Assembly (NCBI GenBank): GCA_044892525.1
Contig: CM097885.1
Coordinates: 9,798,001-9,862,000 of the forward strand
Direction of reading: 5' to 3'
Source: Schmidtea polychroa
Taxonomy: Eukaryota
DNA length: 64,000 nt
In this document: piece by piece, positions 21,101-24,100 of the stretch
Layout of the letters: every line of letters starts with the position of its first letter
Numbering within the stretch: the first letter of the stretch is position 1
Position numbers and translations under genes: made by a program
Notes under the pieces: model-generated
Told to the model about the DNA's origin: nothing
The model's database searches: none
What the model saw: the letters and a program-made list of their open reading frames with translations, nothing else

Positions 21101-24100
21101 AATAATAATAATAATAATAATATAAACAGTACAAGCTTTGTGATACCCAGTGCAAATCGCAATAGTAGACTAGTTTCGAGCTTTTGACTCTCATCAGTAC
21201 TATGCAGGAGACACGAAGATTTCTCTTCGCGCCAGGTAAGTATACAATATTGTTGATTCAACTCTATTTTATACTTTCCCCGGTACACTGGAAATCACAT
21301 CGCTTGCAAACTAGCTTGGTCACAGAAAAAATCTGTAAACTTGTAAACATGGCGTATGAAAAATCATAATCACCTCTGCGGACTAAAAAATTAGTCGAAA
21401 CACAGAAACTGTTTACAAGTGCATCCGATTACCTTTAGCATTTTTAACTTATAAAGTAATGGTGTAAAATATTTTTGTCGGATGTCTCACTTGAATAAAA
21501 TAAACAGTACAAGCTTTGTGATACCCAGTGCAAATCAAATAATAATAATAATAATAATAATAATAATAATAATAATAATAATAATAATAATAATAATAAT
21601 AATAATAATAATAATAATAATAAAAATAATCTTTATACTGCAGTCATTTTCTTGCCTCCTTGGATTACAGTTACATGGACCGTTTGGAATTTTAAACTTG
21701 ATTCCATGTATCGCTATCATATCCAGTTCCCTAGGAAGACTTTTCTGGGGCTATTTAATAGATAAAATTTCCTTTAAAGTTTGTTAAAACATTTTTTTCT
21801 GAGCTTTATTATTTGATGTCTATTAAGTTAGCCATGAGAATTATTACTTTGACCAGCTGTTTATTTGTTGGAACTTTACCCCTAATAGAGTTAATTTCTA
21901 TACGTTCTCGTCTTTATATTTTAGGATTATGGCTAGCTATAATTTTCTTCATGTTGTCTGGAAGTTTTACGGTTTTCCCAAGAATTTGTGCAAAATTATT
22001 TAGGTCGAAGCATTTTATTTCTAATTATGGCATGGTCTATACGGGATGTGTAAGTACAATTATTTATTTATTTTATATAAATATTTAATTTTGAAACGAG
22101 TAACCAACATAGAACACACACAAGAACTGTTCAGAGTTTTTTTTTACTTTTATTTTTACTTTAAATATATTATAAGAACTTCTTTTGATCTTCACCTCTG
22201 ATTTCTTTTCATTTTCAATTAATCAATTTTCATTATATTTATTAAAAAATTGACTAAGAATCAATAAAGTTATCCATGTTTTATGATATTCATGAATTTT
22301 CGTCACATCCATTTTCAAGTGAAAGGTTTTGAAAGGTTTTATAGAAAGTAAATTACAAATATTTTATTTTACGTCACAACATACTCTATACTGATCGTCT
22401 TCAAAAAAAAGTGGAATGACAATGTAAAATAAAATCCTTTATATAGCAAGATAAGTTATTAGTTATCCATTTATGTAATAAAGTAGGTCATATAGTTTTA
22501 ATTAATAAATAAGTAGGTCAAATATTTTCCAAATTTTAATGGTCATAATATCTGGTGTGTACATAGAGTTGTGTGTACATTATTGTGCTACTTATACCTA
22601 TGAGGGTTCAACTATCGTGAGTCAAAACCTTCCAAGGGTAAAAAGATGTTAGATTACACGATGGATTTATTTAGGTCTGTTGAGGAGGCCATAAAAATAA
22701 AGGTCAAATGCAGGGATGGAAACTGACAAATGGATTCGAATACTGAAAGGGTTTTAGAAACTATTCCCAATGATAGGAAATAAAAGTTGATAAATTTACA
22801 AGAGAAGACATGTTTGTCAGTAAAAACCCTTGAAATAGTATGGTTTACAACTGAAAATGAATTCAGTTTTAAGATTCACAGTGAACCAAAAGAAAAATTT
22901 CAAAATGCGAGTTTTTGAGCCGTTTACCAAAAATATTTGAACCATTGGGATTAACTGGCGTATTTTTTAGTTAGGGAAAAATCCATGCTTTTGAAGGTAT
23001 CTTTGTAAACAACATTCAGCAATTCATAAACAAATTTGTATATATTTTATAGAAATATAGTTTTATACAGTGATGGGATTCATTTTCTTTGGAACCGGCA
23101 CGCTTTCTAAATTTTTATTTATTTGTAAAATATTTGTAATATTTACTGAGAGGCATTTGATGACTGCTTGATGATTTGATATCCATTTATGTCACAAGAT
23201 TTAATAATTATATTACAAGGTTTATGGTGAACATTTCATTAACACATCGTCTTTTCAATCCATTTCGTTGAAAGTGCACAGATATTCAAAATTTATATCA
23301 ATTTCTTTCTTAAATATATTTATGAATAATTGTTAATTCATTATTTATCATTATATTCATTTATATTATGAATAATTATTTATTATATAATATTATTTTG
23401 TTTTTATTTTAATTTCAGTCGGCCGGGGCAACCATTTGTAGCTTGATTTCACAGCTAGGTTTCAGAGATAAATTAAATAATACAGAATACAGAAATATAT
23501 TAATTGTATCTTCTAGTCTACTGCTAATTGGTAATTATTATTATTATTATTATTATTATTATTATTATTATTATTATTATTATTATTATTATTATTATTA
23601 TTATTATTATTATTATTATTATTATTATTATTATTATTATTATTATTATTATTATTATTATTATTATTATTATTATTAATATTATTATTATTATTATTAT
23701 TATTATTATTATTAATATTATTATTATTATTATTATTATTATTATTATTATTATTATTATTATTATTATTATTATTATTATTAATATTATTATTATTATT
23801 ATTATTATTATTATTATTATTATTATTATTATTATTATTATTATTATTATTATTATTATTATTATTATTATTATTATTATTATTATTATTATTATTATTA
23901 TTATTATTATTATTATTATTATTATTATTAATATTATAATTATTATTATTATTATTATTATTTTTATTATTATTATTATTATTATTATTATTATTATTAT
24001 TATTATTATTATTATTATTATTATTATTATTATTATTATTATTATTATTAATATTATTATTATTATTATTATTATTATTATTATTATTATTATTATTATT

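Follow-up and report, generated by a model that had tools for sequence, protein, structure and literature searches.

In a 64,000-nucleotide stretch of the Schmidtea polychroa genome (contig CM097885.1; hereafter, the window, with a base composition of about 26% GC), a short minus-strand element appears to join the first nucleotides of U1 snRNA to a hammerhead ribozyme. This raises the questions of what kind of element it is, whether its likeness to U1 reflects descent from a host U1 gene, and whether a U1 promoter and start site were captured with it, as a preliminary description had proposed.

Anatomy of the two copies in the window

Copy 1 is a 413-bp insertion on the minus strand (21124..21536) that comprises 1.09 units of a 378-bp hammerhead retrozyme of a young subfamily, and it is 97-98% identical to dispersed and tandem copies across the genome. 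It has an exact 35-nt terminal repeat with a period of 378. The 5' copy of this repeat (21502..21536) is the unit start after 5' truncation; the other belongs to a segment composed of the 3' tail and the terminal repeat (21124..21158), which stops at the predominant 3' terminus of the family, some 45-52 nt past the cut site. The 378-bp unit with a direct terminal repeat of the preliminary description is therefore real, as part of a 1.09-mer. A reading of the repeat as an LTR was ruled out, because copy 1 is a 1.09-mer of a tandem unit and the genome contains arrays with a period of 378. An (AAT/ATT)n tract at 20990..21123 represents the insertion target on the 3' side of the copy, and a second AT-rich (AAT/ATT)n tract starts on its 5' flank at 21537. 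No coding ORF was found in the 378-bp unit.

Along the minus strand, copy 1 harbours a PSE-like 8-mer, TTGCAAGC (21302..21309), located at -66 from U1 nt 1 and with a weak fit to the host snRNA upstream motif, followed by the 5' arm of a long predicted hairpin (21271..21283), complementary to U1 nt 1-12. Next come the U1-like segment, nt 1-19 by comparison with host U1 variants (ATACTTACCTGGCGCGAAG; 21225..21243), a GAAA-tetraloop hairpin (21210..21233), the 5' arm of which corresponds to U1 nt 11-19 in the predicted fold, and a type I hammerhead (21158..21207) with a palindromic stem III of 1-2 bp and cleavage predicted between 21168 and 21167. The succession first described, i.e. a U1-like 5' end followed by a GAAA hairpin and then by a type I hammerhead, could thus be located in full. 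The hammerhead consists of CTGATGA (21197-21191), stem II GAGT/GCTC, GAAA, the palindromic ACTAGT and GTC, all on the minus strand. All its core nucleotides are present, in agreement with the intact minimal ribozyme proposed earlier; the Rfam model HH9 scored 19.6 bits on copy 1 in a local scan (E 0.028), below its gathering score of 52, and found no match in a scan of the whole 64-kb window. The stem-I arm tactattgc found in copy 1 is uncommon in the family, its C being present in 2/135 aligned pieces.

Copy 2 is a 1.2-mer of an older subfamily on the plus strand (14688..15148), 82% identical to copy 1. As had been noted, it retains the 13-mer of the U1 motif (14982-14994), though its hammerhead core is mutated to CTGATAA (core G to A at 15033), so that its ribozyme is probably dead.

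A probable retrozyme family and its putative Penelope-like partners

The host genome (781 Mb, with four very large contigs) contains 1,676 exact matches to the U1-like 13-mer, including 253 U1 array genes; the first 30 matches fetched were all element copies (30/30). The U1 motif is the norm across family copies, with the 13-mer at >1,400 sites outside the U1 gene array, and is a family trait as had been supposed. The preliminary description had also suggested counting the copies in the genome. The family comprises at least 1,400 of them, and their number is estimated at roughly 2,600 because, of two hammerhead patterns with 1,377 and 1,674 genome matches, the second was also present in 19/30 loci chosen by the first.

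Copies are dispersed or arrayed, 5'-truncated and often 5'-inverted, and they end at AT-rich tracts. Young copies are 97-98% identical, and tandem arrays reach about 11 units with a period of 378. We analysed 106 loci selected solely by hammerhead or tail patterns; they are what was left of 110 loci fetched within the initial 35 Mb of contig C1 after removal of four (duplicates or units of the same array). The 5' ends are scattered, between -540 and +66 relative to U1 nt 1. Copies that reach upstream of U1 nt 1 are the large majority (85/106), and since only one of the 106 begins exactly there, the U1 piece is internal to the retrotransposed RNA. The 3' ends are clustered, 57 of them lying +44 to +55 and 33 of them +74 to +97 downstream of the cut site, both regions being U/A-rich. 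An adjacent inverted 5' piece is found in 31 of the 106 copies, 18 are longer than one unit, and in 32 the 3' end abuts an (ATT/AAT)n tract, target-site duplications being indistinct inside such microsatellites. In all 106 copies the sequence runs on past the cut site, so that the template would have been an uncut multimer or a re-ligated circle.

The hammerhead core is intact in 89/117 aligned copies that span it, in a sample picked by hammerhead patterns; a genome-wide search with the HH9 model gave no match, with 58 candidates scored. The scattered 5' ends, clustered 3' ends, 5' inversions, AT-rich targets and tandem arrays make it very probable that the 378-bp family is a non-LTR retrozyme. 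Period-378 arrays, one hammerhead per unit and marks of retrotransposition without true LTRs all fit the element type that had been suggested from copy 1. The unit is covered by contigs of sequencing runs presumed to be RNA, although such contigs say nothing on expression. Three loci (L277-L279) devoid of the U1 hairpin looked like a U1-less subfamily, but they share their flanks and represent one duplicated insertion. At these loci, the U1 hairpin region is swapped for a short segment with TAGCATGG, an 8-mer also present in host U6, probably by chance.

Metazoan non-LTR retrozymes are described as 150-450-bp non-coding tandem units of low GC content, each with one type I hammerhead, in genomes in which Penelope-like elements (PLEs) co-occur (Cervera and de la Pena 2020, PMC7229834; bioRxiv 10.64898/2026.07.22.740005; accessible parts of both). 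Like them, the S. polychroa element has monomers and multimers and a strongly folded predicted circle. Unlike them, it carries a segment apparently derived from an snRNA, and it shares a minimal stem III with the hammerheads of amphibians and PLEs.

Two PLE families are present in the host, both of which end beside (AAT)n tracts, as does the retrozyme. Family 1 encodes a reverse transcriptase (RT; Pfam RVT_1) and a motif that we take to be of the GIY-YIG type, and its 3' pseudo-LTR (pLTR) contains a hammerhead core. Family 2 is very young (L379-L386), with copies 97-99% identical and an intact 856-aa ORF; its pLTR contains a degenerate hammerhead-like motif, with TTGACAA for CTGANGA. Minimal type I hammerheads near the 3' end are a described trait of PLE pseudo-LTRs (PMC7761336, accessible part). 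The retrozyme resembles the PLEs of this genome in its 5' inversions, its insertion at (AAT)n and its 3' ends in a TGTTT-A context. In contrast with them, its unit has no ORF, and the pLTRs of the two families show no significant similarity to the 378-bp unit and no U1 motif. At one locus (L063:1415-2262), the 3' piece of a PLE, in inverted orientation, directly adjoins a retrozyme copy. Judging from this join and from the shared targets, host PLEs likely mobilise the retrozyme.

A second retrozyme copy (L377:1328-1753) is joined directly or nearly so to a PLE piece and, like that of L063, could reflect a template switch or a shared target. Other PLE loci have peculiarities of their own. One copy (L149:3324-5571) has an in-frame 321-bp internal tandem repeat in its RT region, and at L122 a PLE fragment is in frame with a sequence resembling a retrocopy of a proteasome alpha-subunit.

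We propose that the arrays are transcribed, mostly through read-through. Minimal hammerheads would pair via the ACUAGU palindrome and excise 378-nt monomers, by analogy with amphibian and PLE motifs (PMC7229834, PMC7761336), and a host ligase would circularise these monomers. At (AAT)n, priming on the U-rich tail by a Penelope-like RT/GIY-YIG enzyme might then be followed by copying round the circle, which would generate 1-1.5-mers as well as arrays.

Extent and origin of the likeness to U1

In the window, ATACTTACCTGG occurs at 21232-21243 on the minus strand and at 14982-14993 on the plus strand, with 0.2 occurrences expected by chance and no two-match result in 100 shuffles. The element matches one host U1 variant (L031/L033/L037) at 16/16 positions from U1 nt 1, and the dominant, 253-copy variant (L041) at 18/19 positions from nt 1. 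The likeness to the U1 5' end is therefore longer than the 13 nt initially claimed. A 16-nt match anywhere in U1 was obtained in 0/5,000 shuffles, and a match of at least 17/19 to any of eight U1 heads in 0/20,000 (observed, 18/19).

The likeness stops soon after. Beyond nt 16, homology to U1 has p values of 0.25-0.6 for the variant with the identical head (L031/L033), the lowest values, 0.02-0.05, being those of two of the eight variants. The search with a U1 model suggested in the preliminary description gave no match up to E 10 in the copy 1 region, and alignment revealed no homology past nt 16-19. No Sm site was found in the 378-bp unit or in the 76-nt RNA that a start at U1 nt 1 followed by self-cleavage would release, and the element lacks the set of features (stem-loops 1-4 and Sm site) by which U1 genes and variants are recognized.

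The short match invites the explanation that the likeness to U1 is secondary, i.e. that the segment represents a consensus 5' splice site on the opposite strand, or a hairpin arm complementary to one, with the extra bases matching by chance. Indeed, the reverse complement of the U1 piece, on the plus strand, is a perfect 5' splice-site consensus (CAG/GTAAGTAT), the upstream arm of the older subfamily is itself splice-site-like, and the lack of significant homology past nt 16 and the large number of windows and repeats scanned are also on its side. However, the match outruns the splice-site-pairing end of U1 by 5-8 nt and reaches helix H and stem-loop 1, for which a captured 5' splice site would not account; the shuffle results at 17/19 also argue against chance. 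We thus regard a secondary likeness as improbable. Derivation of the U1-like piece from host U1 is, to judge from the alignments, well supported and quite probably correct.

Several other candidates were set aside. An origin of the hammerhead from whole U1 was suggested by a colinear-looking alignment, the scores of which past nt 16 are no better than those of shuffles. A likeness of the hairpin-hammerhead stretch to U6 had nominal p values of 0.004-0.015 in local mode among 13 targets, but the alignment is gappy and the signal disappears in anchored mode, as expected of chance. U1-plus-hammerhead stretches elsewhere (68 metagenome and 14 viral) were also attributed to chance, with no hammerhead stems among the matches listed. 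Among the metagenome records, a multi-copy, apparently coding repeat family that recurs in several of them (L178, L185-L188, L202, L205, L207, L210-L214 and others) is a chance match to the pattern.

A U1-bearing retroposon has a precedent in SINEU of crocodilians, a short non-autonomous element with a U1 5' part thought to have been added by template switching (Kojima 2015, PMC4494074). In the accessible part of that paper, the U1/U2 part constitutes the 5' head, a Tx1 LINE acts as partner, and no hammerhead or tandem circle is described. The S. polychroa element resembles SINEU in the presence of sequence apparently derived from U1 nt 1 onwards. It differs in that its U1 piece is 19 nt long, internal rather than a 5' head, predicted to be locked in a hairpin and located beside a hammerhead. 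The combination of a retrozyme with a SINEU-like U1 piece unites, as a chimera, two types of element previously known apart. No U1-bearing retrozyme was found in searches of open-access main texts. In the accessible texts, 'snRNA' appears once in PMC7229834, in a reference title, and is absent from bioRxiv 10.64898/2026.07.22.740005; 'retrozyme' and 'U1 snRNA' appear together in one general review (PMC10226581). The element is of interest because a single 378-bp unit, with young copies, unites a ribozyme with a candidate PSE and the start sequence of U1. If the U1 piece were ever exposed, an abundant selfish RNA would touch host splice-site recognition.

The host U1 genes are themselves diverse. 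At least six divergent U1 variants are present on contigs C1, C2 and C4 (L031-L050), some with changed splice-site-pairing ends (AAACTAACCTGG, AAACTTACTTGG), and the 253-copy array, the unit of which is about 1.77 kb, contains two different U1-like genes.

Folding, fixity and transcription of the U1 piece

The predicted fold of the circular monomer is much more stable than those of shuffled sequences (z=-8.9), with 15/16 U1 positions paired. In this prediction, the upstream arm is the partner of U1 nt 1-12 and the downstream arm that of nt 11/13-20. Several haplotypes exist for the upstream arm, which resembles a splice site in an older subfamily (CAG/GTAAAGT) and lacks the GT in younger ones, and the U1 side has only one. 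Pairing is kept in four of five paired polymorphic columns. The partners of three U1 nucleotides vary between subfamilies, and none of the 16 U1 columns is polymorphic, against 37/200 upstream, a difference not significant alone. On this prediction, a hairpin with a splice-site-like arm would hold the U1 piece in a form that resembles the duplex of U1 with a 5' splice site rather than a working U1.

A second organism (organism B, run X6) provides a comparison. Its contigs are about 80-85% identical to the S. polychroa element from L019:2174, which is U1 nt 3, to the 3' end, and nine of them have dissimilar letters upstream of that point. At least four changes are found in the 3' arm of the GAAA hairpin and none in nt 3-27 among the variants listed, with sequencing depth mostly over the hammerhead core; a few contigs have a decayed motif, and two low-depth contigs are near-identical to the S. 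polychroa element. This comparison suggests that the U1 sequence is under selection; the onset of similarity between the species at the U1 motif would fit a transcription start equally well. A search of the host genome for a subfamily like that of organism B gave 25 matches, none of which was an element. Just 5' of the U1 motif in organism B (a loose end before L019:1418), two contigs contain what, on visual inspection, seems to be a different hairpin, the loop of which includes ATTGCAC, the U1A-binding loop sequence.

We propose that the U1 piece was gained when a reverse transcriptase switched onto U1 RNA, as proposed for SINEU, and that it would have been kept as a folded, sequence-specific module, in which it is predicted to pair with the splice-site-like arm of the element and with the hairpin downstream. 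The template switch alone is no account of the fixity of the U1 sequence. We give about an even chance to the whole chain, i.e. a retrozyme spread through circles by a Penelope-like enzyme, capture of U1 by template switching and maintenance as a folded module.

Fixity could also reflect a function in trans. An opened circle or cleaved fragment might act as a 5' splice-site decoy, or antisense intronic copies might recruit the U1 snRNP, and selection would maintain the sequence. The U1 sequence being fixed while its pairing partners change is consistent with this, as is the prediction that nt 1-10 are single-stranded in the 76-nt fragment. In addition, probable exons of MFS-transporter paralogues are found on the plus strand at 21620-22088, 5852-6256 and 12326-12705 (best PDB E 0.21; paralogue match E 4e-13), and on this weak gene model an intron appears to contain copy 1 in antisense orientation, in which it would offer a perfect donor site. 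Conversely, the unit has no Sm site and the predicted fold of the monomer has the motif fully paired, and a role in trans appears to us unlikely.

The remaining question is that of the promoter. The sequence ATGYAW is common to host U1, U2, U4, U5 and U6 genes, in 12/15 non-redundant upstream regions at -67 to -71 (-76 from the model start for U5); both the motif and its window were picked by eye after unanchored motif sampling, which gave nothing clearly above shuffles for these regions. The dominant host U1 variant is devoid of it. An octamer-like form, ATGYAW(WT), at -67 to -76 upstream of L033, L035, L038, L040, L051, L340-L349 and L357 is a candidate PSE for the lineage.

The element could carry an snRNA-type Pol II promoter within its unit. 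Transcription would then start at U1 nt 1 and run through the array, and cleavage would yield a capped 76-nt leader and monomers; with a circular template, a promoter that is normally external would be copied along with the element. In favour of this reading, the match to U1 begins exactly at nt 1, and similarity to organism B is at least 80% from about U1 nt 3, with unlike sequences upstream. With a start at nt 1, nt 1-10 are predicted to be single-stranded. An internal start is compatible with the scattered 5' ends, since full monomers would still be produced from arrays. As to the promoter, the 8-mer at -66 is degenerate (TTGCAAGT/C) and fits the host motif weakly (p 0.03-0.19 over its variants). 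The commonest variant is TTGCAAGT, in 39/85 copies (p=0.033, against a motif picked by eye); in the youngest subfamily, to which copy 1 belongs, the 8-mer is TTGCAAGC, with a score of -0.2 and p=0.19. It is devoid of the first A found in all 12 host sites and lies 1 nt nearer than any of them, the best ATGYAW match of the unit is at -29, within the hairpin arm, and the upstream region is strongly structured in contrast with the AT-rich host flanks. None of 16 comparisons of the 150 nt upstream of the element motif with eight host U1 upstream regions was significant; this alignment is uninformative, because host U1 flanks are mostly unalignable to one another, the host-host control being mostly negative too.

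Coats et al. reportedly described newt satellite 2 in 1994 as a hammerhead tandem repeat with a minimal stem III and an internal snRNA-type promoter. We know of no U1 transcribed sequence in that satellite. The S. polychroa element is likewise a hammerhead-bearing tandem repeat with a minimal stem III, and its promoter is only a candidate. The snRNA promoter of newt satellite 2 (via PMC2220036, accessible part) nevertheless offers a precedent. By contrast, retrozymes of metazoans seem promoterless according to the accessible part of a review (PMC7761336), and the transcription of animal retrozymes and of SINEU is described as open in the accessible parts of the retrozyme papers and of PMC4494074. 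A promoter within the unit is in our view possible but rather doubtful. Less probable still is the composite case of a retrozyme with a captured U1 promoter and first 19 nt, the arrays of which would also yield a capped 76-nt RNA, its U1 5' end free and usable as a splice-site decoy, with the hairpin masking this sequence in the circle. Replication through an RNA circle would then explain the retention of an external snRNA promoter, unlike in ordinary retroposons. The 76-nt RNA would require both a start at U1 +1 and a cut by the minimal hammerhead, probably working as a dimer.

The window also contains other mobile elements, including an open 623-aa hAT transposase frame (41742-43613, minus strand), the pol remnant of an LTR-retrotransposon (32452-34415, plus strand) and repeated polB-2 pieces (50469-57616) that suggest a Polinton-like element.
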